This document shows positions 25,003 to 47,533 of a DNA stretch of 64,000 nt, in pieces (the stretch's first letter is position 1; the number at the start of each line of letters is the position of its first letter). Source of the DNA: Protoeuglena noctilucae (lineage: Eukaryota); assembly GCA_958009085.1 (NCBI GenBank), contig OY253676.1, forward strand, positions 806,001-870,000, given 5' to 3'. The notes under the pieces are model-generated. The model was not told the DNA's origin, made no database searches, and was given only the letters and a program-made list of their open reading frames with translations. The translations under genes and the position numbers were made by a program.

Positions 25003-28000
25003 ATGAGCGAGTTCTTTGACGTGGCGGCGAGGGAGGGGGGCGACGACGAGGAGGAGGACGAGGAGGTGAGAGAGGGAGTTTACAAGAATGTGGCACTCAC
25101 TTGCGAAGCACTCGCTCGCGATCGTGGCGCGAGGAATCATTCGCCCGGCTCTTGCGGGTGCCTGGTCGCTGCGATGCGGCCCTAGGGCGCTGCCCGTCGC
25201 TCGCGGGTGTGCATGCATAGTCGTTGCGTCCGACGCGCACACGAGGGACGCGGTGGACGGCGTCTAGTGCCGGCCAGGGCAGCTGCGCGCACGTCCCGCC
25301 CGATGCACCGCCCCCGCGCGCACCGTGTGCTCCGCAGGGGCCGGGGGAGGACCTGAACGACACGTCCAACGATGAGGAGGAGGAGGAGGGGTTGGATGAG
25401 TTTGAGCAGGATGGGTTTGTCGTGGGAGACGACCAAGCGGAGGGGGAGGGTGGAGAGGGGGACGGGGCCGCGGGCGGGGAGGCGGGGGAGAAGGCAAAGA
25501 AGAAGAAGGCGAGTGCGGCAGGGTGGCAACGGCGGGATCGGGGTTCGGGACGTAGCGGCGGGCGCGAAAAGGTTGCAAGCTCCTCACGCCCGCTCCCGGC
25601 CCCGCCGACGCTCCGTTTCTCGACGTGACGCGCAGAAGAAGAAGAAGAAGGACCGCGTGTGGGAGCTGGACGAGGAGGACTACGAGATCGCCGGCGTGGA
25701 CCGCCGGAAGCGCCTGCGCCGGGTCGGGGACGACGACGAGCCCATCCGCGCGCAGACGCGGGAGGAGCTCGAGCGGCAGATCTTCGCAGACGGGGAGGGC
25801 CCCGTCGAGGGCCTGGAGGACGAGGAGGCGGAGGCGGCCGTCGCGCGCAGGGAGGCTGCGGCAGCGCAGCGGCGCAGCCGGGCGGACGCGCAGGTGGGCG
25901 CGCGCGGCGCGCGAGGGCCCCGGTTGCGGACCTCGATAAGTGGAATGTCTACTTCATAAACAATGCAGAAATAGCAGTAAACCTCCGCACGCGCCCTTCT
26001 CTCAGCTGGACGAGGACCCGATGGACGATTGGATTGAGCACGACACGGATGTGTACCGCGACGCGGAGAAGCAGTCGCGTGCGGCGCGGGAGCGATATCC
26101 GGGCATGACGGAGGCGGAGGCGGAGGCCCTGGCGGAGGCGCAGGAGATTTTCGGCGACGTGGACGGCACCCTGGCGCAGTACCAGGCGCTCAAGCACAGC
26201 CGGGGGGCGGACGAGGAGGGCGAGGGGGCGGAGGTGAGTGGGCGTGGGTGCGGCATGGAGTCCTTCGGGTGTTGCTGACCTTGTGATGCGATGCGAGCCC
26301 GTGGCTCGTCGTACTCTCCGGGAGGCTCCACCTGTGACGTTGTGCCCCAATAAATGCTTTCTCTCATCTGACATCTCCTTGTCCTCTGACCGTAACCGTC
26401 CCTCGTGCGTGCCTCTCTCACAGGAGGAGGAGGGGTCTCAGAAGGGCGAGGGGCGCGGGGGTCGGTCGGGCGTGGGACGTTTGGACCCCGAGGCGGCGCG
26501 GCGGCTGATGCTGACGGAGAGGGACGACGAGATTCGAAACACGGACCTCCCGGAGCGCGAGCAGCTGCGCGAGGGGGCGGCGGGGCTGGGCCTGGCGGGG
26601 GCGGACCTGGCAGCAGCGGCCGAGTGGATCTGTGACGAGCTGCTGCAGCTCCCCCCGGACCACGCGCTCGGACGGCTGCTGTACGAGGGCGCGATGCACG
26701 TGCACGGCACCGAGGGGCTCGACGGAGGGCGCGCCTGGCCGCCCGGGGCGCTGCTGGGCAGCCCGTCGGACCTGCGGGGGGCGCGGGGCGTGCGCATGCC
26801 GCGGTCCGCGGAGGCCGCGCGGGACTGGAAGGCCGGCGCGCGCGGGGTCGCGGACGACACCCGCGTGCGCGAGGCGCTGCTCGGGGCCGTGCGGGCGGTG
26901 CTGGAGGACGTGGTGGAGGGGCACTGGGAGGTGCCCGCGCTGGCGCTCTTTCGGCGGGGGCGCTGCGGGGAGCTCCTGGCGGGACATTCGGAGGACCTCG
27001 GCGTGAACGGCGAGGGGGCGGTGGCGAGCCGGGAGGAGGCGCGGCGGCTGGCGGACAAGTACGCCGTGGCCGTGGGCGTCGGCCGCGTCATGCCCGAGCA
27101 CCGGTGAGGGCCGCTGGGGCTGTGCGGGTGGGCACTTTGGCATCCTCTACTCATTCCTCATCGCGCTGCGGCGCAATGGGGCCCGGCGCGCGACGCTGCG
27201 CAACCGCCCGCACCGTTTGCAATGGTTCGAGACCAAACGCCGTCCCGGCCACCGCGCGTCCTCCGCAGTCGCGTCCGCCGCTTCGATCTGCTCTACTACG
27301 TCCAGGACCTGGCGGCCCGCTTCGCCGCGCTCGAGTCCGTGCGGTCCGCGCGCCGGCAGAAGTACCGGCAGGCGCTTGACGCGGCGACGGGGGCGGATGC
27401 GGCGGCCGTCGCGCGGTGCCTGGAGGCCCTGGAGTCGTGTCGATCGATTCCGGAGATGGACGACGTCGACCGGACGTTCGAGGCGACGATTGACGCCTCG
27501 GAGGACGCCGCGCTGCAGGCGGGGCGGTCGGCGGGTCCCGGCCGCGTGGCCCGCACCAAGCGCGTCGCGGCGATGCGGAGGAGCGGGGCCATCGAATTCA
27601 CCGCGCGGTTCGCCATCTCCGCCGAGCAGGTCAGAGATAAGGGGGCGGTGGCGTGTGACAGTGGCGCTTGTGCTGTTACCAGCCCTGGAATCCGCATTTG
27701 TTCCTTTATCAAGCAACCCTCATATTCTGTCTCATTCGCAGTTGGCGGAAAACCTGGAGGAGCAGGACCGCACCGGGCTGACTTTGCACGTCCCGCCCGA
27801 CCCGGCCCAGCCGCCCGAGGCAGCGGCCGAGGCGTTTGTGCAGGAGTGGCAGTCGGGGATGAGGTGAGTGGGTGCGAGAGGGAACGTAATAGAACGAGAG
27901 ACGTGCATAGTGAGAGTGCCGGGTGGGAGGAGGAGATGTCAGCTATCCTCGCTCTAATCGCCTCACGTCCACCCGCATCTACCAACAGCCACACACCATC

Positions 28001-31000
28001 ACTGATATAAAGCCCTATTGCCACTCATGTCGTTATCTAGATTCAAATCCCTCCCTCCCCAATCCCCCCGCAGCGGCGACCTCCTCCTGCAGATGTCGGT
28101 GCAGTCGGCGGCCACGCTTCTGGCGTCAGACTTCCGTGTCGCCTCCCACGTGCGGTCGAGGTTCTACCGCCACGCGAGGCTCACCGTGACGTCCACGCCG
28201 GAGGGGGAGGCCAAGATCGAGGCGCACAGCCTGCTGGGGCCGGTCAAGGTGAGAAGGGGAGCTGTGCTGGTTAAGGTTGTTGAGAGTACCAATGGCGGCG
28301 TGCGTTTGGGGTTTCGCAAAGAGCTGCAGCCCCCACCGCCACCCTCACCGCTACCCTTCACATCACCCCCACTGCCACCCTCACTGCCACCCTCACCGCT
28401 ACCCTCCCCCGACCCCCACAGCGCCTGTCGGGCGTCCCGCTGGGCCACATCAAGTCCGGCCACTTCTCTCTGATACGCAAAGCGGTGCGGGACAAGCTGG
28501 TGACGCTTACGATGGCTTTCCCCAGCGAAGAGCAGCGGGCGGTGATGGCGGAGATGGCAGGGGCGTACAGGGGTGCGGGGGGGACTGACGTGGGGGCGGC
28601 GTGGGACGATCTGCGGTGAGGGGTGGGATGTTGTGTGGGGTGTGGGATTGTGTGAGTGGTTTTGGGCGTGGGACGATTTGCAGTGAGGGGTTGTGGGTGG
28701 GGTGGTGTGTGGGTGTGTGTGGTGAGGGTGCGCGTGGGACAATCTGCAGTGAGGGTTGTGGGGTGTGTGGGGAGCGTGGGTCGAGCTGGAATGCAATTTG
28801 GTGGCCAGCCATCTCACCCTACTCATCCTACTCATCTCACCCCATCTCACACTCACCCCCACTCACCCCCACTCACTCAAAATTACCTCACCACCCATCT
28901 CCCCCCCTCATCGCAGCGACCGCATCCTCCACACCGCCGTCCACGACCACATCCTCCCCGCCCTGCGCCAGGAGGTCGAGAGCGATCTCGAGAGGCAGTC
29001 CGCGGATCACGTGGCCTGCGAGGCGGGGGGTGTTTTCTGGCGATACGCCACGCAGCCGCCCATCGCGGTGGCGACAACTGAGGACCCCGCGGACCCCAGG
29101 CCGCTGGACGTCAGGCTCGTCAAGGCGAGTGGGGGTGGGGGATTTGAATGAATGGTGTAAAGTCATCGTATTGGGTAATGAATCCAGTGAACCATGCCCC
29201 ACCCCCTACACCTCTCTCGCCACTCACTCACCCACCCTATCACCCACCCCCATCAACCCCCATCACCTTCCCCCCCTCTTCAGGTCTGCGTGGCTCTCTG
29301 GTCCCCCGGCACCACCCCCGGCGACCTCACAACGCTGGCCGTGATCGATTCCCGGGGCAACCTCGTGGACCTTTTGCAGTGCCGGCAGCTCACCGGGGAT
29401 TACCCCGCGACACGCCAGACACGCGGGCCCACTGAGGGGGCGGGGGGGGCGACAACAACAGGGATCGAACCCCCACCCGACGCATTGCGGGATCCCCGGA
29501 AAGCGCGGGATCTCGAGGATATTTTGAATCTGATCGTGGCGCACAGGCCGCACGTGGTGGTGGTGGGGGCGGGGGGCGCGGGGGCGATTTTACTGGCGGA
29601 GGATCTGAAACGCGTTTCTGGCAAGATATCCGAGAATTTTCAGGAGGCGGTGAATGAGGATCTGCCGGCGGGGATCGGGGTGGAGGTGGTGGAGGACCAG
29701 GTGGGGGGGTGGGGGGGTGTGGGGGGGTATGGGATGTGTTGGGGGGGTTGCTGGGTGTGGGGTTATTGGGGCGGAGGTGGTGGAGGACCAGGTGTGTGGG
29801 GTGGGTGGGGGGGGGAATTTTGTGGGGTGTGGGTGTAGTGGGGGGGTGGGGTGTGTGTTGTGTATAAGTGATATTGGGGTGGAGGTGGTGGAGGACCAGG
29901 TGGGGTGGGGTTGGGGGGTAGCGGGGGTCGTAGTGTTGTGTTAAGCGGTGGCAATTCTTCGTGCAAACAACACAGGCACACTACAGACACTCTCATCTCA
30001 CCTCTCATCTCCCTCCCACCTCACTCCCCCATTCAGGTGGCGTGCCGCTGGGCCGCGACCAGAGAGGCATCGGTGGAGCTGGGGGACCTGTCGCAATCGG
30101 GCAGAGCAGCGGTGGGGCTGGGGCGGTGGGTGCTGGATCCCCTCGCAGTGCTGTGTGGGGTGGTGGCGGATGAGGGGGCGGCTGTGGGGCTGTTCATGGG
30201 GCCGGCGGAGGTGCTGCTGGGGTGAGTGAGAGGGGGGTTGGGGGGGTTAAGTGTGATGGATGATGATAACTACTATCAATATGATGATGGGTGGGTGTGA
30301 CGGGTGCGGTGGGGTGGGTGGGGTTGATGGGGGTGGAATGAGTGGGGTGTGATAGGTGGGGTGAGTGGCAGGGTGGGGGAGGGGGTGGATGGGGTTACAT
30401 GTAATGCATCACTAAGATTACTATGACTGGTAGCAGTGATGTATTGATAGGTATGGCTGGTTGATAATTGGTAAAAATAGTTGATAATGCCCTGACAATA
30501 CCGGCACCCCATCATCCCACCCACGATAGCACAGTAACCACGCCCTCTCCTCTCCCCCTCCCCAGCCCCCCCCGCCGCCGCCAGCTGATGGAGCGATTGC
30601 TGGTGACTGCCGTGGCGCAGACAGCCGTGGATGTCAACACCGCCGTGGCATTCGCGAGATGGAAGCTGCCCACCCTCGCCTATGTGCCGGGGCTGGGGTG
30701 AGCGGGCGGGCGATGCGCGGGGCTTTGTGATTTTATCATGTTATTATTGTTTGTTATTGTTTGATGTATCGCATTTGATATTGTTATATTTATGACAATA
30801 ATGTTGTGGTTTATAGTTTATAATAATAACAAGATCATGGTAAGTACATTAATATTATTATTATACTATAAGTTCAATGATATTGTTTTACGATCTCACC
30901 CCCTCCCCTTCCCCCCCGCAGCCCCCGCAAGGCCTCTGCGCTGATCAAGTCCATCCAGGCCACCCCCGAGGGCGTGCTGCAGTCGAGGCGGCAACTGAGG

Positions 31001-34000
31001 GAGGATTTGAATATGGGGCCGGTCGTGTACGCCAACTGCGCGGGGAGCCTGCTCGTGCAGGCGCTCAAGTGAGGGATGGGGTGGGGGGTCCATTTTAGCA
31101 ATAGCTGTTGTATTTTATCTTGTTTTAAATTAGATTATTATGACCATTGTCCCTTGCCCCCGCAGCGCGAGTGACCTGGGCAACTACTACCTCCTGGACG
31201 CCATCCGAGGTGAATCGCGATTAGCAATGATATGATAATATATGATAAACTAATAAGATGTATGATAAAAATAATAAGATGTATAAGATCAACAGCACAT
31301 TCAGTTAACCCCCCCATAAATCCCAGTTATAATTCCCTCAACCCCCCCCTCTCTCTCCCCCGCAGTCCACCCCTTCGCTTACCCCCTCGCTTATCGTTTG
31401 CTCCGTCACTTGCGCTCCCGGGGGCTGCTGTCCGCGACTGCCGATAGAGATGGAAACGGGGATATGGATGAACACGATAATGCGGATGCGGACGCATTGG
31501 TGGGGGAGGCGTTGGACCCAGAGGGGCCGAGGGGGGCGGTGGCGATGGGGGCGGATGTGGCGGGGGTGTGGGAGGAGATGGCTATGGAGATGGGGGAGGG
31601 AGCTAGGTGAGAGTTTATTGAATGAGCATGTCTTAGCATTAAGCCCATTCCACAACCCCACTGCCACCCCTCTTACAACCCCTCACGCTCGCTACTACCC
31701 ACCCTACCCCCACCCCACTGCACCCCACCTCATCCTCACCCACACCCTACTCCCTTACCCCCGCAGCGCATCCGGCCTGCGTCTGGCCACCCTCATCAAC
31801 ATTCAAATCCACATCTAATAACTCCACCCCATCTCCCTTCACCCCCGCAGCTCAACCGGCCTGTGCATGGCGGCCCTCATCGACGTTCAGATGGAGATCG
31901 CCGCACCCGGCGCCTCCCTCCTCCCCACCTGGCGCCCCCTCAGCCCCTTCCGCGCCTTTTTGAGCCACGCCCAGATTCGATACGAGGACGTCAGGCAGGG
32001 GCGGGTGGTGCGGGGCACGGTGCGCGCGGTGTTGCGGGAGAGCGCGATTGTGGAATTGGAGACGGGGGTGGAGGCCGTGCTCCCCAAGCCCTTTTTGAGC
32101 GAAAGGACCTCCCCCGATTCGATCGGCGACCTCTCGGGGGTCGTCGCAAGGGGGCAGGCGGTGGCGGCGCGCGTTCTGGCGGTTTCGCCCAAGCTGACGC
32201 AGGCAGACGAGGAGCTGCTGGGGCAGAGGGACCGGAGGCCCTGGGACGCCGCGGCGTTCCTGGGGGAGATGAGGGCCATGGCCAACGAGACCATGGTGAG
32301 TTATTCTGTTGATATTGATTGCGAGATGGTAATTGATCGATAGTGTTGGTAGTGGTGGTGATGGTGAGGGGTGGCAGTTTGTATTGGTATTGACGGCAGT
32401 TGAAACAAGTGTTGATTATAGTGTATATTGGAATGTCGGTATGAATTCGCTTACAACCCGTATCAATTATCACCACCCCCAGTTGCGTGAGAACCACCGG
32501 GGCGGCATCCAGGGCGGCCCCTATGCCTGGTACAAGGACAGCGGAGTGGGGGACCGGTTCGGCATGTTCGGGTGGCAGAGGTGAGGAATGGTGTATGGGC
32601 TAAGCTAATAGGTGTTCTAATTATTGTAATAATAATGTTGTAATTTAGCACGTTACTTTTTTGTAAATTAAGATCATTTTTGTTATATTATCATATAAAA
32701 TGGTGTGATGATACTACATATTTCCATATGTTCACTTCTCCCCGCCCACTCAGGCTCTCCCTTCAAGACTGGACCGAGACGGGCTTTGACCGCACTTCGG
32801 TCGTGCACCCCCACCACCCCGACGCATCGATCGGCTCCCGCATCAGCCAGCCATTCGTGGTGTATCTAATCGCATTCAGTGCCGAGGTGCAGCGGGACGG
32901 GCGGTGGGAGCGCGCGATCGCGGCGCATGAGGGGTACTATGAGGAGACGGAGGTGGATTGGGAGGGGGCGGAGGAGAGGGACCGGGCGGCGGTGGCGGGT
33001 GAGGGGGGGTGGTGGTGATGGGTGGTAATAATGATTGTAATTTGATGGCAGGTGATGGATTGGGAGGGGGCGGAGGAAAGGGATCGGGCGGTGGTGGGCG
33101 GCGGTTGATGTTCGCATTATTGTCAGTGTTCACTGTTAATCGTCAATATGTTATATGTTATAGTTATATATTTTATTGCATATTGCCAACATCTTATATT
33201 TTGTATTTCATCATCTCCTCCACCCCCCCCAGGCCCGTCTGCCAAGGGCGACCGTGGCAGGAAGAAGCAGCCGCCATTGATGATGAGGCGCATCGAGCAC
33301 CCCTACTTCCGAAACGCCACGCTGGTGAGGGCATAGAGGGGGAGATTACACATTTGGGGTTGTTAATTTGGTCTGGCAAGTCAAGCTAACATGCGTCACT
33401 GGCGGCGGCGCTAGTGGGCAAGCCCTCTCCCCTCTTGCCAATCATTACGCTTACCCATATCTCATAGTAATGAAACCCATCCCATCTCCCCTTATTCACT
33501 CCATCTCAGGAGGAAGTGGAAAAAGAGCTCTCGTCTCGCTCGGTGGGTGAGCCCCTCTTCTCCCCCTCCACCAAGGGCCCCTCCTCTCTCCGGCTCACTT
33601 TCAAAGTGGCCCACGTCCCGATCGGCGATTCGGGGGACCCCCAAGATTCGATCATGCACGTGGAGATCAAAGAGGGGGGCAAGGACACCTCACGGCGGGA
33701 GACGATGCTCTCTCTCGGAAAAGAGCTGGCCATCGAGCATCCCCCCGGCGCCCCGCCCGCGGCTGCGTTCCGGGAAGTTTACGAGGATTTGGACGAGGCG
33801 GTGGCGCGGTTCGTGGAGCCCCTGGTCGCCAACGCAGAGCACGTCTCACGACACCGCAAGTACGTCGCCGGCGGCAAAGCACAAGTCGAGGACTTGCTCA
33901 GGCTGCGGCTGCGGGCGGACCGATCGCTTAGGGGAGATTACGCGCTAGCGCCGCACCTGCCCACGGGCAATGCGAGCGTGGATGGGGCGCGTGCGGGGGC

Positions 34001-35003
34001 GTTCTACATCGCAGCGTGTGTGCGGGACCCGAGGGGGGGGGAGCCCCCCGTGCATCGCGAGTATTTCCTCTGTCACCCCGACGGCTACGTTTTCCGGGGA
34101 GGGAAGTTCCCGGATCTGGAGGCGCTGGTGGATGAGTTCAAGCGCAAGCCGGGTGAGCGAGGGGTGGGGGTGGAGGTGTGTGTTATGGGATGGCGTGACT
34201 GGTGGATGAGTTCAAGCGCAAGCCGGGTGAGTGTGCGAGGGGGTGGCGGGTGTGTGTACTGGGATGGGGTGGGTTGGTGGGCAATGACATGCTGGCAGGG
34301 TGGGGTGGGGATGCACGTAACTGCACTCGCAAGCAACCCCACCCATCTCACCCACTCACCTCCCTCATCACCACCCCTCCCGTCTTCCTCCCCCCACAGT
34401 GGCCAAATCCACCGCCCCCTCCGCCCCCCCTTCGCGGCCCGCCGGCACCACCGCGGCCATCTTTGGATTCGCCCCCTTCCGATCCACGGGAGCAGCCACG
34501 CCCAACGCCAACTACGCCCCGCCGCTGCCGGTGAGGGGAGTGGGGCGGAGTGGGTGCTGTCTGTGTCGCTGTGCTTGTTGCAGCTGTCACGTGCACCCCA
34601 CTTGCCTCCTCATGCCACGCTCTTGCCACTCCATCTTACACACTCCATCATGCACCCCCACTATCTCATACCCCCACCCACACCCCATCTTACACACCCC
34701 ATGTCGCCACCCTACCCCCCTTCCCCCCTTCCTCCCCCCCCGCAGCCCCCGCCAATGGGCATGGCCTACTCATCAGGCGCAGCTACCCCGGGCGGCCGCC
34801 CCGCCTATCCCGCGCCCCCGCTGCCCTACCCCCCCGCCATGCCCGGCGGTGCATCGGGGAGTGGGGTTGCTGCGAACAGGGGTGCGAGCATGGGTGCCCC
34901 GTCCGAGCCATCCATGACAGATCTACTGCAGCGGTCTGCGGCGCACATCTCGCAGCAGCTGGGGAGCCAGGGCGGGGGGGCGAGGGGGTATGGGGGGGGT
35001 TGA
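25003..35003 (+). CDS. SPT6: Transcription elongation factor / histone chaperone SPT6, about 20 exons
   Basis: Acidic N-terminus (DEFEQDGFVV, ELDEEDYEI, AQEIFGD), MLTERDDEIRNTDLPEREQL, YqgF-like HRPHVVVVG, HhH YVPGLG|PRKASALI, DAIR|VHP, S1 domain, tandem SH2 (RRIEHPYFRN, PSTKGPSSLRLTFKV, YEDLDE). Confidence 0.93.
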
Positions 35004-37338: not shown

Positions 37339-40300
37339 ATGCTCTCCAAGAGCCTCGCTCGGCCACGCGGTGCCGCTAGGAAGAACGTGAGTGTCGCTGG
37401 ATCGCACTGGCTGACGCTTTGAGCGCTATCTGTGCTTCCGCACTCCGCCCCAAGCACCGGTGCGTGCCCAGCGGCGCGATCGTCGCACTTCCAATGCCCG
37501 CTCTGTTTCACGCAGGATGTTCGTCGGAAGAACGTGTTACCGAGCGACAGTTCCGTTCCGGACGACCCGCGGGAGAGCGACGGGGGTGAGCGTCACCTGT
37601 TGGGTTGCCATCTGCGCCTGCAGCTCGCGGCGCGCTCGCCCGCCGCCTGCTTTTTCTGACAGAAATCGGTTTTATTTCGCTTTTCGCAGGTCAGCCGGAG
37701 CTCCCGAGCGCCGCTGTGCCGTCCAAGCGGCGCGGCAGGGCGCAGGGCCCGGCGCAGTCATGGTTAGGGTTAGAGGACCCCAGCAGTCCTTCTGAGTCCG
37801 GCGATGAGTTAGACTACAAGCCAGGCGATGACTCAGCGGACTCGAGCAGCGAATCGGTGCAGGAGGTGCCCCGGGCGCCGCCTGTGTGGCAGGGGCGGCC
37901 TGGGCTGAGGCGAAATGGGAAGTTGGGAATGGGGGAGACTGTGGGGGGTGGCGAGAGAGGGAAGGAGGGAGCTGGGGCGGGTGAAATGCGGGCGATGGGT
38001 GGCGTGGAAGATGTGGGGAAGGAGGGGGGGTTGGTTGGGGACGGGGGCGGTGGTAAAGGGGGCGATGGGGGTGGTGGTGAGGATGGTGGGGATGGTGCGG
38101 GGGTGCATGCGTCAGATGATGACAGCAGTAGTGTGGAGATGCTGGAGCCGCCTATGCCAAAGCGCGCTCGACGGGAGCGGAGTGAGAGAGGCAAGGGCGG
38201 GGGCGGGTGGGCGAGGGGCGGGGGGGGTGGCAAGGAGGGTGGCGATGAGGGTGGCAGTGGGAGAGGCAGGGAGGGTGGTGTTGAGGGTGGCAAGGAGGGT
38301 GGTGACAAGGGTGGCAGTGAGGGTGGTGTTGAGGGTGGTACTGGGGGTGGCAAAGGGGGTGGCGAGTGTGACAACAACGGGTGGCAATCACCTGCGGGAG
38401 GCAATCAAGATCAGCAGGAACAGGGCGGTTCTGCGGATGTGGAATTGCACGGATCTGCGGGTGCCAGTAAACGGGGGGAGAAGCGGCGGTTTGCGGGTGG
38501 TCGGGGGCAGGGGATGCCAAAGCAGCTGACGGCGCGCAAGCGGACGTTTGCGGACGCGCGTTTGAGTTTGGGTGCGGCAGTCGGTGGGGGTGGGGGTGGG
38601 GGTGAGGGCGCGGGTGGGAGTGGGGGTGGGAATGGAGGTGCGGCAGTGGGTGCAAGTGGGGGTGGGGGTGCGGAGGGCGATGGTGGCGATGGTGGCGATG
38701 GGGTTGAGGGTGCGGGTGCGGACGCAGATGAGGGTGTGGGTGCGGGTGCAGGTGTGGGTGTGGGTGTGGGTGTGGGTGGGGGTGAGGGTGGGAGTGGGGG
38801 TGCAGCAGTGGGTGTGGGTGCGAATGTAAATGTGGGTGCTGATGCTGGTTTGGGTGCTGATGAGGGTGGTGGCAAGGTTTCCAAGAGAGCGAAGAGGGGT
38901 GGGTCAGGGGAGGGCGGGCGAGAGCGGGAGGGGGCAGTGCGGGAGGAGGGGAGGGGTGGGACTGAGGATTGGAGAGAGGTGGCGGTGGCAGATGTGGCAG
39001 ATGGGCAGGTGCCGGTGCAGGGCGTTGTGACGAAGGAAAGGGCGCAGGTGAGTGTGATGGGTCTGGGGGTGGTGTCGTTGCATACACACGGCTGGTGTTG
39101 CTGTTGGGGTGGGGCAAGTGGAGATGCTGTTGCTGTGAAGGGGTGGGGATAGCGGTGCAAGGATGATGGTGGTAGTGAGTGTTGCTGAGATCCTGACTCG
39201 TCTATTACTCTCACTCTCTCCCTCCTGCAGTGGCACGACATGGTGGGCGGGGAGGTGCGCAAGCGATTCCTGGGGGAGTTTTACGAGGGCGACGTGGAGG
39301 GGCGCAGGGTGGGGCCCAAGGGGAAGCCGTGGTATCATGTGAGGGGCGGGGGGTAGAATGGTTGTGTCGATGAGAATTGATGATGACGATGATGATGAAA
39401 ATGGATGATAGTGGTGGTGGTATCATGTGAGGGGTGGGGGGTTGGGATGGATGGGCGTGTTAGTGATAACAATAGGTGATTATGATAACAGGTGATCACA
39501 GTGGTGGTATCAGGTAAGGCGTGGGGGATTGGGATGGATGGTTGTGTTGATGATGATAACAGGTGATGTTGATAACGGGTCGTAACGGTGGTGGTATCAG
39601 GTGGGGCGTAAGGGGTTGTGATGGATAGATGTATTAGTGATAGTAACGATGGTTATTACCATCATTGCCACCGCCATCACCGAAGTCATCATGAGTGTCA
39701 CCTTTATCATTACCAACAACAATATATTACCACCACTATCATCATCACCATCCCCCCAGGTTTCTTACGAGGACGGCGACAGTGAGGACATGTCAGAGGA
39801 CGAACTGCGCAAAGTCATGACGTGGTGGCACGGGTGTGGCAGGCCACGGCCCCAACTCAACAAGCAGCCCCGATCGACATTACTCCTATCCTCTGATAGA
39901 GATATACAGACATACAGAGAGATACAGACAGTCACGCCCACGGGCACCACGCGCAAGAGAGGCGTGTCGCGGGGTGCGAGGGGTGCGAGGGGTGCGAGGG
40001 GCGGAAATGACGGTACGGCCAAAGCACGTTCGGCGCGTGCCAAGGGGGTGGAGTTGGTTACAAAGGGGAGTGGTGATGAGAGTCAGAAACGGGGGGCAGC
40101 CGGGCGGGGGAGGGGCGGGAGGGCGGTGGGCGAGGGACACGGCGATTCTGACGCCAGCGCGGGCGCCAGTGAGAGCGCCAGTGAGAGTGAGAGTGGGATC
40201 AAGACTGACAGTGAGAGTGAGAGTGGTGGGAAGGATGAGGATGTGAGACGGAGCAAGGGGGGCAAGAGGGGCGGTGGGCGGGGGGGTGGCGGGAAGGGGG

Positions 40301-42779
40301 TGCGTGCGAGGGCGAGAGTGAAAAGGGGTGGTGATGCTTGAGCAAAGGAGGCAGCCCCTGCAACCCCTGGTGTGGAAAAGAAGGGAAGAGTGACGTCGAA
40401 GTCCCAAATGATAGAGGTGACGGACGTTGATAGGCGAGCGAGGGGGGGGGGGGGCGGTGAGGGGTGCGCAGGCGATTGTGACAGAGAGGGGCCAGGGAGC
40501 GGGGGAGCGATTGCCGGTGGGCCCGTGGGTGCGCAAGGTGTGGGCGGCGCCATTCGCGAATTTCGACTGGCGGTGGCTGGGGGAGGGGGAGATGGGGGGG
40601 GAGGAGCGCGTGTGCGGGTGAGATGAGAGGGGGTGCGGGTGCGGGTGGTTGTGTTTGCGTGAAGGGTGGGTGTTAAGCAGAAAGGGGAGTAACTAGAGAG
40701 TAGTATTTGTGTTGTTTTTGATATCAAAGACTCCCCTTCTATGTGCAGTTTCAAGCGCCCCCCCCAGTGCGTGCCTGGCTACCTGGGCGTCATCACCTTC
40801 ACACGGGAGCCAAACAGCAAGGCGAGATGGTGGATGCGTCGACTATATAGATCATCTATTAATTATTATAACCGCTTAATATTTATGATATAATTATAAC
40901 TGTTATTCTTCATATTATACTGATAACTTTATGATTGTTATTGTTGTAATTATTATTATGATTACTAATACAAATATCCAATTTCCACCCCCAGAACTAC
41001 TCCGGCGAGTTCACCTTCTGCATGTGGAACCACAGCCGCGCCGTCATTTACAATTACCCCGACTCTTTCCCGACAATCGAGGCCGCTGCTCGCGCTTATG
41101 ATCGCGTGGCAATCGCGTACAGTGGGGCTGACCGAGCACACACCAACTACCCTGTGGAGGGAGATGAGGGGGAGGAGGGCGGTAGGGAGGGAGGGAAGGG
41201 TGAGGGGTGTGGGGTTGGGGTGGCAGTGAGGGTGGCAGTGGGGGTGGTGTTGAGGGTGGCAGTAAGAGTGGTCGTGTGGGTGCCAGTGTGGGTGTGGGTG
41301 TGGGTAGCAGTGGGGGTGGCAGTGGCGGTAGCAATGGGGGTAGCAGTGTGGGTGTGGTTGCTAATGGGAATGCGTTTGCAACTCTCTGTCACTATCACTG
41401 TCACCCTTTCTATCTCTATCACTTATTACTAACTAGTAATCTCACTCTCCCCATCCCCCAACCATCTTTCAGGCATTGAGCTGAGCGTGGGCGGCAAGTC
41501 CTTCCCCCACATGGGTCTGCATGTGTTGGAGCTCAGGAGCAAGCTGCCGCTGGCGTGCTTCAAGGACGCCGTGACGGGTGAGGAGGCGTGTTGTTTGTTA
41601 AAATAATTTAATAGTTAAGTAAATAGTATAAATAGAGATAAAGGGTGAGGGTGCGTGCTTTAAGGACACCGTGAGGGGTGAGGGATGCATGGTTTATTTG
41701 CAAAGAAGTGAGCCTGTGTGTGGTTTGTAAGACACAATGACGGGTGAGGATGCGTGTTGGCTATAAATAGTCTATGAATGGAGATCATGGGTAAGGGTGC
41801 GTGCTTTAAAGACACCGTGACGGGTGAGGATGCGTGTGATTATTATAAATAGGAAAAGCAGCGAGGGGTGGGGTTCGTGCATCAAGGTTAGCGTGACAGG
41901 TAAGGCTGCATGCGTGATATTAACACACCGCCACTCCCGCACCCGCTCCCACCCCTCCCTCTCCCCTATCCCAAACCCAACCTCCTCGTCCCATGCCCTC
42001 TTCCCAAACCCCTCTTCCCGACCCCCTCACCAACTTACCAACCCCCCCTTACCAATCCCCTTAATCCCTTCCCCCCCCCCCCCCCCCCCCCCGCCCCTTT
42101 CACAGCATCTGACTGGGTGGCGTGGCGCGAGGGCGTGTGGGAGGAGGCATGTACGCACGCACTCAGGCGGGGAGACGAGGGCAAGCGGCAAATAGCACAG
42201 CTGGGGAAGCGGATCAAGTTCTTGTTGGAAGCACTCGATTCTGACATCGTCAGGCCCAGCCAGGTGGACAGGCGAGGGGTGGGGTGTGGGGTGGATGGGA
42301 CGGGGGGGTGGGCTGGTGGGGTGATGGGAGTGGTGGCTGTCATGTCATCGTTAATTATAGTACTATTATAGTACTATAGTATTATAGTACTATTAATTAT
42401 AGTGATCATATTTAATGTCAACTCTTTCCGATCGACTCACCCTCTCTCTACATATCACAGGTTCAAGCGCCTGCTCAGTGACTGCGATCGTGTGACGGAG
42501 GTGGGGGTAAAGGAGGAGCACTGGGCCACGGAAGACGGTGAGATGGTAGTTAATGTATGTATATTTTTTTATGGTTATCATTTGTCAATATATGCGGCGC
42601 TGTTACAAGAGGTGGGGGTCAAGGAGGAGCACTGGGCGAGAGAGGACAGTGAGTTGGTAACTAATACATGTAAATGTGTGTCTCTATTATGAAATTACTA
42701 TTAATAGTTATATAATGATATACTTTATATAACTATATACAGAGCTCCCACACTGCTGGTCCTGCGCAGTGACACTCTC

Positions 42780-42826
<47 letters not shown>

Positions 42827-45800
42827 ATAGTATACTATATATACTATATATACTATATATCTCTTATATATCCCACAGAGCTCCCCCACTGCTGGTCGTG
42901 CTGCGTGGCCCGCGCCCGTCGCAGCGGGGGTGCGTCCCCCGAGCAGCGCCGTCGCCAGATCCGGCACGGGTCGGTGTGCCTAGTAGCGATGATCAAGGCC
43001 ATTCAGTGGGAGATGGTGTCGTGGGACGCGGTGAAGGTGAGATGTGAATGAATGTTCGAATGAGTGAGTGAGTGAGGGAGTGAGTGAGAGTAGCATGAGA
43101 GTGACTGAGTGGCATGGATGATTAAGGCCATTCAATGAGAAATGGTGTCGTTAGCACTGAGATTGTCGTGGTAACTAGAACTATATCGCATATCACTTCA
43201 TCACTTTCTCCCTCCTTCCAGGCCCGCGAGGGTGGCAAGGACGCTGCGGGTGCGGCCATGAGGGAGGATGCCATCATGATGGATCTCTTCGCCAGGGGGC
43301 TCAAGCAACTGAAGGGGGAGGGGGAGAGCACGCCGCTCGTCAAGGTGAGGGGTGATGCATTTGACGATAACATATTCATATTATTGATCATGTAATCAAA
43401 TTGATTGATAGTCGTGTTATTGATTATATTGTTCGGGTAGTTGCTCATTTTTTTTTTTAAGTATTTCTCAAGTTACCTCTTCCCTTTCCCCACCCGCAGG
43501 CCGCCGCCCCCCGCCGCCGCGCCTTCCTGGGGGGCAACAAGGGCCGGCAGCGCGCCAACACCGCCCAGCAACACCAACACCAACAACAACAACAACAACA
43601 ACAGCGGGAGCGGGAGCGGGGTGGTGATGGCAACGGCGATGCGGGGCCGAGCAGTGGCGCAACCAGTGCAAACGGGGCAAGCGGGGCGGTTGTTGCAAAG
43701 GGGCGGGGGAAGTGGCGCGGTCCCAGCTCTGCGTTCCGGCCCGCCAGGGTGGGGCATTTGGTGCCCGAGGGGCTGCGCGTGGTGGTGATTGGGGCGGGGC
43801 CGAGCGGGTGCAAGGCGGCGTTTGACCTGCACGTGAGTGACTAAGGAGAGGGAGAGAGGGGAGGTGTGGAATTGTGTTGTGTTGTGTGTTAAGAGGGAGA
43901 GTTGCAGAGCGGGTGCAAGGCGGCGTTTGATTTGCACGTGAGTTACTTGGGGGGGAAAGATGAGAGAGGTGTGGGGTTGTGTGGTGTTGAGGGAGATGGA
44001 GGGAGTTGTGAGAGTAGTAAGAAAGGTGTTGCGTTGCGTTGAGAGCAGATCAACACACCCCACCCTTATTACCCCACCCCACCCACTCACCCCCCCTTCT
44101 CCACTCACCCCACTCACCCCCTCCACTTCCCCCCCCACCCCCCCCCAGCGCATGGGTGCCCACGTCACCATTCTGGAGGGCCGGGACCGCGTGGGGGGTC
44201 GCATCCACTCCTGGCGAATGAAGACGGGGGCAGCGGCAACGGGGAACGACACAGTGGCAGCTGCGGGGAATGACGATGTTACAAGGGCGACTGACGGGGC
44301 AGCGATGGGGGCAACTGATGCGGCAGCAATGAGGGCGGCTGATGAAGCAGCGATGAGGGAGCGTGGGACTGATGCAGCAACAACAAGGGAGCCTGCGACT
44401 GATGCAGCATCGAGGTCGCCTGACGCAGCCACTGCACCCGCACCCAACACAGCCACCGCCCCTGCTGCTCCTGTCCCCCTCATCTCCCCATCAATGGTGA
44501 CATCAACGGTGACGGTGGACTTGGGCGCTTCGTATATCTGTGGCACCAGCCGCAACCCCCCCTGCAACCCCATCTTAGAGTACTGCGTGGACAAGCTGGG
44601 GCTCGAGATCAGGCCCAAGGCGAGTGGCGATACTGTGGTATTTTATGATTTTATATAGTTATTGATCGTGTGTTTGCAACCCATATTTGTGTCATGTTAG
44701 TATCCAATATTTATCCTTATATTTTAGCTACAGCTACAGCTATAGTAATATTTACCCACTTACCCCTTATCTCTTCCGCAATCACTCCCAGTTCCGCGAC
44801 AGCGCCAAGCACGTTGCCTTTTTCGGCAGCGACGGCCGCCGTGTTCCCGACAAGACGGTCACGCGCGTGATGGCGAGATATGACGCTATTATGGACGCCC
44901 TATTGGAAATGAGCGATGAGTCGTGGTGCACGCCCGATGTGACTATGCAAGAGGCGGTGGACAGGCTCATGAGGCAGGGGGTGGGGGGCGGGGGCAAGCG
45001 GGGGGGCGGGGCGGCAAAGCGGGGGGGTGGCAGGAGGGGCGTGGGGCGAAACGGGGGATCTGGCAACGATACTGGCACCGGCAACGGTGCCGGAAACGGC
45101 AACGCGGGCGGGGACGGCAATGGGCGCGATGCGGGTGGTGGCACGAACGCAAATGCGGGTGGTGGTGGTGGTAATGGTGGCAGTGGTGGCAATGGTAACG
45201 GCAATGGTAATGGCGATGCTGATGCAGATGTGGAGTCTCAGATCATCGACGCGCTGTTCAGTGACTTGTATGTGGCTCCGATGGATGCCCTGTCACTGAC
45301 GGGGATGGTCAGCGAGGGCTTTGAGGGGGACCACGAGCTGGTGATGGGGGGGTTCAAGTGAGTTACTGGATATGTATATTTGCTAATATATAGATATAGT
45401 AATATGTATGATAATCATATGGTATGGTCAGCGAGGGATTCGAGGGGGACCACGAGCTCGTCATGGGGGGGTTCAAGTGGGTATTGTATGCGTGGTAATA
45501 ACTTAAGAGTTACTTAGTAATTCTATGCAATTATTATGTACAGTAATAATTACAGCAATAATATGATTCTCTCTTTACACCCGCAGGCAGATGATCGATG
45601 CCATTTTGGACGGCACCCCCCCCGACAACGCGCCCAAGAACCCAGACCTGGCCATTCGGTGAGTGGGAGAGTGGCAGAGACGATGTTTGGCTGCTATGTT
45701 TTTCACTTTTTTATCTTATAGCTTTTCTTGTGATCAACTTCCAAACCACGACAACTATGTAAATCTATATATAAGGTGGCAAATATTACTGTCATTCCCC

Positions 45801-47341
45801 CCCCTTTGCCCCCAGTGACAAGGTGCTTCTGTCCCACAAGGTCACTCAAATACAGACCGTGCCTGGGGGAGTGCTGGTGCACTGTGAGGGGATCGACCGG
45901 CCATTCGCGGCGCATTGCGTGGTTTGCACGCTGCCGCTGGGTGTGCTGCAGAAGGGGGCAGTGCAGTTCACGCCGCCATTGCCGGAGGTGAGGGTAGTGT
46001 TGAGTAGGGGGGGTGTGTGGGTGTGGGTGTGGGTGTGGGTGTGGGTGTGGGTGTGGGTGTGGGTGTGGGTGTGGGGGTGTGGGTGGGTGGGGGTACCTGG
46101 GGTGGGGCGGTGGTGGGTGGGGGTGTGGCGAGGGTGGTGATGTGATCAGGATGCCAATGGCCATGTCAAATTCAAACCATTAGCCCCTCTTTCCCTTTTC
46201 AGTTCAAATCCGAGGCCATTCGCCGCCTGGGGATGGGCACCGAAAACCGCGTCATGCTCACTTTCCCCAGGCAGTTCTGGCCAAAGGTGAGGGACATCGA
46301 CGTGGCGATTTAAATATCTGGTTAATGCGGAACAATGCCAGAGCTATCAAAATGACAAGCGTTTGTTTGTGTCAGATTAAAGCAAACGAATACCTGGCAC
46401 ATGCAGGCCACACCTGCATACACGTGCATACTCCCCTCCCCGCATCGCAGGGCCCCCATTTCCTGCGCCCGCTGGGCGAGTGCCGCTACACCTTCATCAG
46501 CCTGGCAGAGATGGGGGTCGGCAACGCCATGTGGTGCCACGTCAGGTGAATGGGTGTTGCATGTGCCATTAGGGATGCTATTGCAGTGAATGCCATGTGG
46601 TGCCACGTCAGGTGAGTGATGGAGTGATGGAGTGCATGAGTGCATGAGTGCTGCAAGTGCCATGGGTACTGCTATTGTTTGTGAATGCCACATGGTGCCT
46701 CATCATCAGTATTACTAGTTCATACTAGTAATACTTGTAACTAGTGTATTCACACCTTGCCGCTCCTCACCACTCCCCAGGCCCTTCGCCATCACCGAGG
46801 TCGAGGCCATGACGGACGAGGAGGCGGTGGAGGACGTCATGGGGCAGTTGCGAAAGATGTTCGGAGACGACATACCCGATCCCATCGACAGGCGAGATGG
46901 TGCATGCATGCACTTTCAACCACACCACCACTTCACCACTCCACCCCTCCCCCACCTCATCCCCCCACTGACCCCCGCAGCAAGGTCACGCGCTGGCAGA
47001 GCGACCCCTTCTGCTACGGCGCCTATTCCTACGTCCCCCGGGGCTGCCCCAAGGAGGCATACAAGGACATGTCGCTCCCCGTCGCTTGCGACCCAGCGAC
47101 CGACGCCCTGTGTCGCAAGCGCAAGCACGCGTCCGACGTCATCGCGCGAGAGCGCAACGTCCGGGTGTTTTTCGCGGGGGAGGCGACGAGCCCGGAGGAC
47201 TCGTACACGGTGCATGGGGCTTACGCTTCTGGGGCCAGGGAGGCAGAGAGGGTGAAGCGGTGGTGGGGCGCGAACGGGGCGGGGCTGCTGAGGGACTTCC
47301 GCGTGACGGAGCATGAGGTGGTGGAGGCGGAGGAGCAGTGA
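37339..47341 (+). CDS. Large nuclear-type protein: PTM-like Tudor + AP2/ERF domain + FAD-dependent amine oxidase (LSD1/PAO superfamily), about 20 exons; frame problem at about 40339-40455
   Basis: Tudor: MVGGEVRKRFLGEFYEGDV...WYH|VSYEDGDSEDM. AP2: GYLGV...FPTIEAAARAYDRVAIAYSGADRAHTNYP. Oxidase: VVVIGAGPSG, ILEGRDRVGGRI, DLGASYI, VVCTLPLGVL, RWQSDPFCYGAYSY, FFAGEAT...TVHGAYASG. Splice phases link all exons from the AP2 domain to the stop. Confidence 0.8.
42783..42870. repeat. Intronic (CT)n and TA-rich simple repeats
   Basis: Directly visible. Confidence 0.9.
46015..46075. repeat. Intronic (GTGTGG)n repeat
   Basis: Directly visible. Confidence 0.9.
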
Positions 47342-47533
47342 GGAGAGCGATGGGTGGGGCGCAAGTGCTAGTTGAGTGTATCATGATGGCTGTGCGTGGC
47401 GCGGCGAGCGCTGGATTGGAGTTTAATGTGCTGCTACGAAGTTTAGAGTATACGGAAACACACGCGGGCATCGGAGGCTCGAGGCGCTGCAGAGAAAGCC
47501 AAACACACTGGGCAGCCATCACCAACACTGCCA

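Follow-up and report, generated by a model that had tools for sequence, protein, structure and literature searches.

An intronic echo of an exon end that differs from it only silently, possibly left by exchange between diverged alleles

Introduction

Repeats that run across an exon–intron junction are known from several human genes. As described in the sections of PMC1557585 drawn on here, F7 intron 7, LMNB2, PDGF intron 4, CBS intron 13 and the interferon-inducible gene 6-16 carry junction-spanning minisatellites, and in F7, LMNB2 and PDGF the most upstream donor is the one used, while the downstream donors are silent. A single junction duplication, human CBS c.844_845ins68, is spliced out and harmless according to the excerpted text of PMC2630376, and the portion of PMC2891723 cited here deals with the gain of introns when an AG/GY proto-splice site is duplicated in tandem. 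Two further systems concern alleles rather than repeats: crossovers favour exons in the hypervariable fungus Schizophyllum commune (PMC4209137, in extract), and in the hybrid green alga Auxenochlorella, a mosaic allodiploid, alleles show silent-only differences in exons and dense differences in introns (PMC12636532, in extract). Searching the open-licence literature, we found no description of exon-end copies that form a genome-wide class and show an excess of silent differences. Here we describe a junction duplication whose two exon parts differ only silently and compare it with the other exon-end copies of the same genome.

Results

An exon end is repeated in its own intron

The window, that is, the whole stretch of 64,000 nucleotides that was analysed (C9:806001-870000), belongs to a genome of 26.3 Mb in 27 contigs. 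In this window, an exon end (45302-45357, plus strand) and an echo of it in the following intron (45421-45476, plus strand) both translate to GMVSEGFEGDHELVMGGF. The features of the locus are as follows:

44792..45357, plus strand: coding exon, 566 nt, in a gene for a flavin amine oxidase (PF01593), ending in phase 2, in an open spliced frame
45302..45357, plus strand: working exon end, 18 codons plus AA, encoding a peptide conserved in the distant relative P0132
45358..45363, plus strand: working donor GTGAGT, at the 41.5th percentile of 1059 predicted donors, giving an open frame
45358..45420, plus strand: intron part of unit 1, 63 nt, 22% GC; readthrough meets TGA immediately
45419..45428, plus strand: ATGGT-ATGGT junction micro-repeat at the start of the echo, which may explain GGG/GGT
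45421..45476, plus strand: echo of the exon end, with 5 silent and 0 replacement differences
45477..45482, plus strand: copied donor GTGGGT, presumed silent, at the 3.5th percentile of predicted donors
45477..45586, plus strand: 110-nt intron remainder ending in the working acceptor, weakly alignable with 45358-45420
45587..45658, plus strand: next coding exon, with an open frame and the P0132 alignment running across the junction

An earlier note on this DNA had reported 18 codons with five differences, all synonymous, four of them transversions and three giving C. Comparison of exon and echo bears this out in full: the differences (exon/echo) are GGG/GGT, GGC/GGA, TTT/TTC, CTG/CTC and GTG/GTC, all at third positions, and the donors given for the two copies, GTGAGT and GTGGGT, are also correct; the spacing, put at 120 bp, measures 119. 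Counted on the exon segment, 5 of 11 silent sites and 0 of 43 replacement sites have changed. GGG/GGT lies at the edge of the echo inside the ATGGT-ATGGT repeat, so only four differences are firm; a comparable 5-mer junction repeat is present at 2 of 76 other donor-side junctions. For these four, the contention that simple decay is an insufficient explanation, here taken as decay of the echo alone, held when the same base changes were placed randomly in the segment (p = 0.001).

The match is not a chance similarity. Its ungapped score is 43, compared with a best of 13 for the same exon end against all 1972 predicted introns, and the peptide was found twice in the genome, in the exon and in the echo, with no other occurrence. 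The pair was chosen as the best of about 15 echo pairs in the window, and it is also the longest and highest-scoring when set against the 118 other pairs introduced below. The duplication extends beyond the exon: the donor is reiterated downstream, the first unit spans the exon–intron boundary, and the intron parts flanking the echo (22% and 32% GC), 45358-45420 and 45477-45586, align with 37 matches, 15 mismatches and 4 gaps (z 2.8, reached by 1 of 34 controls). The 110-nt remainder has an ordinary intron size for this genome (quartiles of predicted intron length 99/143/197), and the working acceptor ending at 45586 lies at the 92.7th percentile of predicted acceptors. The duplication is real and, judged by site scores and homology, most likely untranslated.

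The host gene fixes the reading frame

Ten exons, from 43222 to the stop codon at 47339-47341, form one open spliced frame with GT/GC..AG at all introns. PF01593 matches fall in three exons other than 44792..45357, and the nearest solved sequences for the exon at 45816 are LSD1/LSD2 and polyamine oxidase, as weak matches (E 2e-4 to 2e-3). The distant relative P0132 carries GMVSDGYSGDHELVMGGF in single copy and continues with NQVVLALRDG, which aligns with KQMIDAILDG across the 45357/45587 junction. Since this peptide stays in register across the junction, frame and junction are fixed independently and the exon end is conserved. A paralogue of the host gene that might have been the source of the echo was not found in the genome, and the nearest proteins are 54-66% identical over short stretches, with no accompanying DNA for polarising the codons.

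The amine oxidase gene as a whole (37340-47341) has a long N-terminal part as well as Gly/Asn- and Ala-rich inserts within the oxidase domain, and a Tudor-like match at 39760-39831 (PF21743, E 7e-6) falls just below the cut-off; a chromatin-linked, LSD1-like role of the product would be a guess. Other donor-side echoes occur in the same gene, at 41553-41577 (copies at 41653 and 41799), 42498-42526 (42609), 42988-43022 (43117, where TGG has become the stop codon TGA), 43799-43832 (43904) and 46523-46545 (46589). Between 39329 and 39650, about four units of 87-88 nt form an array that starts from an exon end with its donor GT at 39339; these units carry donor-like GTGAGG/GTAAGG/GTGGGG, and the array is closer to a junction minisatellite.

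Splicing options for the echo

The earlier note had also argued that the lack of a usable acceptor speaks against a mutually exclusive exon. Indeed, no AG between the real and the echo donor scores as high as even the weakest of the 1059 predicted acceptors, and the duplication comprises 56 of the 566 nt and not the whole exon; a mutually exclusive exon was therefore rejected. An in-frame cassette of 45 nt (45432-45476) is possible only on paper: its acceptor, too, ranks below all 1059, and it would double 15 residues that are single in P0132. A proto-splice swap was discarded as well, as neither AG|GT nor AG|GC occurs in register in the duplicated part of the focal pair (1 of 76 donor-side pairs has one). 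With no usable acceptor and no in-register swap, the echo is probably untranslated.

The copied donor is weaker than the working one (3.5th versus 41.5th percentile), and its use alone would lead immediately to TGA; we infer that the first donor (45358) is the one used. GTGGG accounts for 82 of 1198 predicted donors. Donors with GC are common: GCGAG accounts for 143 of the 1198 and ranks second equal after GTGAG in these predictions, which include false introns. Introns in the fetched loci are rich in G towards the 5' end and in C towards the 3' end. Of the sequence words of 40700-47400, a share of 0.34 occurs in an RNA run, as opposed to 0.41 for the exons alone, which fits spliced mRNA and is silent on the codons; word shares of 0.10, 0.06 and 0.06 and zero shares were left out of use.

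Echoes form a class in the sampled genome

Each well-framed exon end was compared with its own intron, using a gene finder that was self-trained on the fetched DNA, had no RNA support and over-predicts. In 1.04 Mb, 66 of 1499 introns contain a copy of the upstream exon end and 40 of 1483 a copy of the downstream exon start. The first set (864 kb) contributed 50/1244 and 35/1238, with 0 and 0 for randomly paired introns, and a separately fetched 180 kb contributed 16/255 and 5/245. The sample covers about 4% of the genome, and echo-rich regions are over-represented in it by design; several sampled stretches were devoid of echoes (0/63, 0/45, 0/51 and 0/74 introns). Three of 98 pairs in the first set were removed as probably coding, the identical filter was applied to the second set, and pair ends were trimmed by three bases each. 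The focal pair stands outside the pooled set because the gene finder split its exon.

Echoes cluster where introns are long and lower in GC, and account for much of the intron length; carriers are 8 of 860 introns below 180 nt versus 74 of 416 above. In the window, a predicted SPT6 gene (25003-34979, with a PF14633 SH2 domain in its last large exon) has echoes at 28598, 29764 and 31853 (on the acceptor side, with mostly replacement changes) and at 34125 (identical over 28 nt). The only named match of the SPT6 exon at E<=1e-10 is a Tetradesmus protein (33%); this match, with marine metagenomes among the data sets that contain the sequence, makes a green alga the probable source. Identities to this exon drop directly from 100% to 49% among representatives and from 100% to 33% in the set of longer proteins.

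The splice cores of the copies are largely intact. All but one of 42 copied donors still begin with GT or GC, and seven of eight donor core changes are swaps between valid donors (six introns in total). Copied acceptors keep C, A and G in 23, 23 and 22 of 25 cases; at the unconstrained -4 position, 11 of the 25 differ. Past the donor core, the copies are identical at a rate of only 0.50 at +8 and 0.40 at +11..+30, compared with 0.35 for unrelated introns (52 pairs); homology between the intron parts nevertheless persists (z>2) in 13 of 34 pairs. Constrained sites are thus alike and free sites diverged between copies, except in the long-exon subset. The focal pair is the extreme of the class pattern: its differences are silent only, its intron parts are scrambled, and the copied donor is followed by 110 nt, a normal intron size.

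These data also bear on the idea that the echo is protein-selected in place, either by being sometimes translated or by being swapped often into the exon through conversion or repeat collapse. The 0/43 replacement and 5/11 silent sites changed are what such selection would leave, the 45-nt cassette would offer a route on paper, and for a human junction duplication a role as template in conversion of the working exon has been proposed (PMC2630376, in the excerpt cited). Set against this are the cassette's acceptor and doubled residues, the missing in-register junctions and the TGA behind the second donor, as detailed above; moreover, whole-exon copies number 0 among the 118 other pairs, a usable upstream acceptor precedes only 3 of 76 donor-side copies, and the class has 99 replacement differences, stops included. 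Conversion frequent enough to select would presumably erase silent differences too. We regard selection in place as improbable, and hold an equally low opinion of its generalization, in which echoes would be spare exon ends under codon-level selection that chromosome exchange moves in and out of the working position. Were the latter true, introns would store working alternative exon-end alleles across many genes.

Silent differences are in excess

The 118 other pairs, located in 98 introns, differ by 120 silent and 99 replacement changes (120/219 silent, 55%; dS 0.22, dN 0.054). Mutation in the copy alone would give a silent share of about 31% (calculated for the first 95 pairs). Adjusted for the mutation spectrum, the silent/replacement ratio is 3.37 (bootstrap 95% 2.4-4.9), a value that favours two diverged alleles as the source. 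The separate 180 kb gave 23 silent to 15 replacement differences, mismatch spacings modulo 3 were distributed as 112:90:64, a count independent of frame, and the excess persists in the 113 of 118 pairs that have no partner splice site. The earlier note had overlooked that in the working exon itself only silent changes become fixed, and that the echoes form a class with 55% silent differences.

The excess is unevenly distributed. It is gone for exons above 250 nt (25:36, ratio 1.99; the focal exon has 566 nt) and in the 27 pairs with the best-supported frame (22:40, ratio 1.58; Fisher p 0.0005 versus the rest, post hoc), and it is absent in 41 pairs that end short of the splice site (ratio 1.96). 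Where introns hold several copies (13 introns), 14 of the 29 differences confined to a single copy are silent, which is no enrichment; overdispersion among pairs was not significant (p 0.10), and neither was the amino-acid conservativeness of the replacement differences (p 0.074). Much of the silent excess is ordinary, with the working exon fixing silent changes, and the echo class may be a mixture.

Local duplication or two working lineages

The ordinary alternative is a plain local tandem duplication of exon end and intron start, by slippage or sister-chromatid error, plus chance: the copy decays neutrally, the exon fixes silent changes only, the intron parts, being of low complexity, are soon scrambled, and the focal pair would be a lucky tail of the distribution that catches a reader's eye. 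Such duplication is the default route to junction repeats in the parts of PMC1557585 considered, and the homology left in the intron parts (13/34 pairs at z>2) agrees with it. At the focal pair the exon has the rarer TTT and the copy TTC (4 versus 19 in this gene), and in the pooled pairs an A or T in the exon is opposed to a G or C in the copy at 13/30 and 23/55 of the silent opportunities; taken together, these observations indicate that exon-side change is real. CpG decay was rejected: exon A against copy G after C occurs in 2/12 cases (background 62/269) and exon T against copy C before G in 4/15 (background 72/258), so that the excess is not CpG-linked. Long-exon and non-flush pairs also fit a local duplication, as does the directional fit, in which the exon-side rate is 1.23 (0.9-1.8) and 1 is not rejected, in a model that itself fits badly. 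Among the other pairs with at least four differences, 2 of 18 are silent throughout (1.1 expected at the pooled rate). For the focal pair, four silent out of four firm differences have p ~0.07 at the pooled rate and p ~0.017 under local duplication.

On the other side stands the behaviour of the class in explicit models. A one-lineage model with a neutral silent rate misfits over 24 cells (deviance 42.8, 18 df, p 0.0008), and a symmetric extra silent component betters the AIC by 8-19. Simulated local duplications give a silent share of 0.34-0.44, short of the observed 0.55. In the 52 of 102 best-copy pairs that are free of replacement change, dS is 0.216, and dS and dN are uncorrelated among pairs (rho -0.05). 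One-lineage simulations reached dS 0.08-0.10 in pairs without replacement and 0.16 only when, relative to the copy, the rate was raised about 4-fold in introns and about 2.5-fold at exon silent sites; with these rates the direction ratio becomes 0.46 versus an observed 1.33. An old duplication refreshed by exon conversion was rejected: it explains the scrambled introns, yet its simulated silent share is 0.39. A two-allele simulation with codon selection, T 0.15 per lineage and subsequent decay of the copy gave dS 0.20 together with a silent share of 0.58 (observed 0.55), a direction ratio of 1.43 (1.33) and a post-donor identity of 0.38 (0.40). Of ten simulated histories, the one with two working lineages matched the figures jointly and the one-lineage histories did not; two parameters of this simulation were tuned and its inputs came from the self-trained gene finder run without RNA. 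Overall, we consider a local duplication plus chance a strong, though less likely, alternative for the origin of the focal echo.

The echo is unlikely to be an assembly artefact

If the culture was heterozygous or mixed, the assembler might have joined two of its haplotypes head to tail, and the layout is the one that such an out-of-register join of alleles would produce. Exact look-ups of open reading frames in a protein collection left 7 of 10 unmatched, including all four that run across the focal echo. Sequencing runs argue against the artefact as far as shares of words can tell: four runs from one sample contain 0.98-0.99 of the 688 words of 40700-47400 (6.7 kb with several echo junctions) and a marine metagenome contains 0.91 of them. 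Open reading frames from other assemblies cross the neighbouring echoes at 34199 and 43904 unchanged, among others on contigs of 907 and 3688 bases, echo copies carry replacement changes, and 5 of the 13 listed multi-copy introns hold or extend to three copies or are seen as arrays (four with three copies). The reading frames from other assemblies cross the neighbours and not the focal echo; for the latter we consider an artefact unlikely, and with it the refuting case of the earlier note, in which the two versions would map to different haplotype reads.

Discussion

The explanation to which we give about an even chance (roughly 0.5) is that two diverged but working alleles underwent an out-of-register exchange, of which the focal echo is the silent scar; the earlier note had hinted at this by its mention of an echo-matching allele. 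In this scenario, one allele (A) would have supplied everything up to 63 nt into the intron, and the other (B) the final 53-56 nt of this exon along with its own donor and the complete 110-nt intron. With the first donor in use, the extra block would be spliced out and tolerated. The exon ends would differ only silently because both alleles were selected for the protein while they diverged, whereas their introns would have drifted freely, and little decay would have followed the capture. The repair route may have been copying from the homologous chromosome completed by end-joining; both the allelic source and this route are inferred.

Exchange between diverged alleles makes demands of its own. 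Several echoes lie in the focal gene, so many exchange events would be needed. Neither a diverged allele nor a record of another haplotype at the focal echo turned up in collections that may omit near records and that contain no sister lineage. The codon pattern of the peptide had 0 matches in metagenome contigs, from which near records were possibly omitted, and for the neighbouring gene only distant loci were found. Read-through open reading frames from other assemblies are identical or differ at 1 of 232 residues. In two marine metagenome runs the shares of words from 40700-47400 are 0.91 and 0.84, an indication of low diversity at present. Runs X16-X23 share next to no words with 40700-47400 despite bearing the same species label as the runs with the highest shares; such an absence proves nothing by itself and may reflect lineages that have diverged within a single species name, or else weak expression or amplicon runs of small size.

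If an exchange between alleles is the correct explanation, introns keep dated samples of alleles from other lineages, a single assembled genome records past hybridisation or extreme diversity, and introns grow via mis-registered repair between poorly matching homologues. If plain duplication is correct, the locus is an ordinary junction duplication and teaches that silent-only differences are no proof of function in an intronic copy. The echoes also constitute many natural tests of a spliceosome that ignores a perfect second donor or acceptor.

Comparison with known systems

The comparisons that follow refer to the excerpts of the cited sources. The focal feature works like a junction minisatellite but is a single junction duplication. 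As in the minisatellites of PMC1557585, exon end and donor are repeated in the following intron and the unit measures about 100 nt (LMNB2 100, PDGF 81). Unlike those, which have 5-25 near-identical units, it has two copies, whose intron parts are nearly unrelated and whose exon parts are only silently different, and it belongs to a class that occupies about a hundred sampled introns on donor and acceptor sides. With CBS c.844_845ins68 (PMC2630376) it shares a single short duplication in which the unused copy differs from the working one; there, however, the acceptor side is duplicated and the change is missense, whereas here the donor side is affected and the changes are silent only. Intron gain from proto-splice sites (PMC2891723) likewise involves a short tandem coding duplication that ends up intronic, but in our case no new intron arose, the copy sits in an existing intron and an in-register AG|GY is missing.

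The diverged haplotypes of PMC4209137 and PMC12636532 resemble the focal pair in that exons are the only well-matching stretches and exon differences are silent only. Their organisms are hypervariable or hybrid, which would be a supposition for the present organism, and the cited portions of these two sources make no mention of exon ends duplicated into introns ('duplication' has 0 occurrences in that of PMC4209137).
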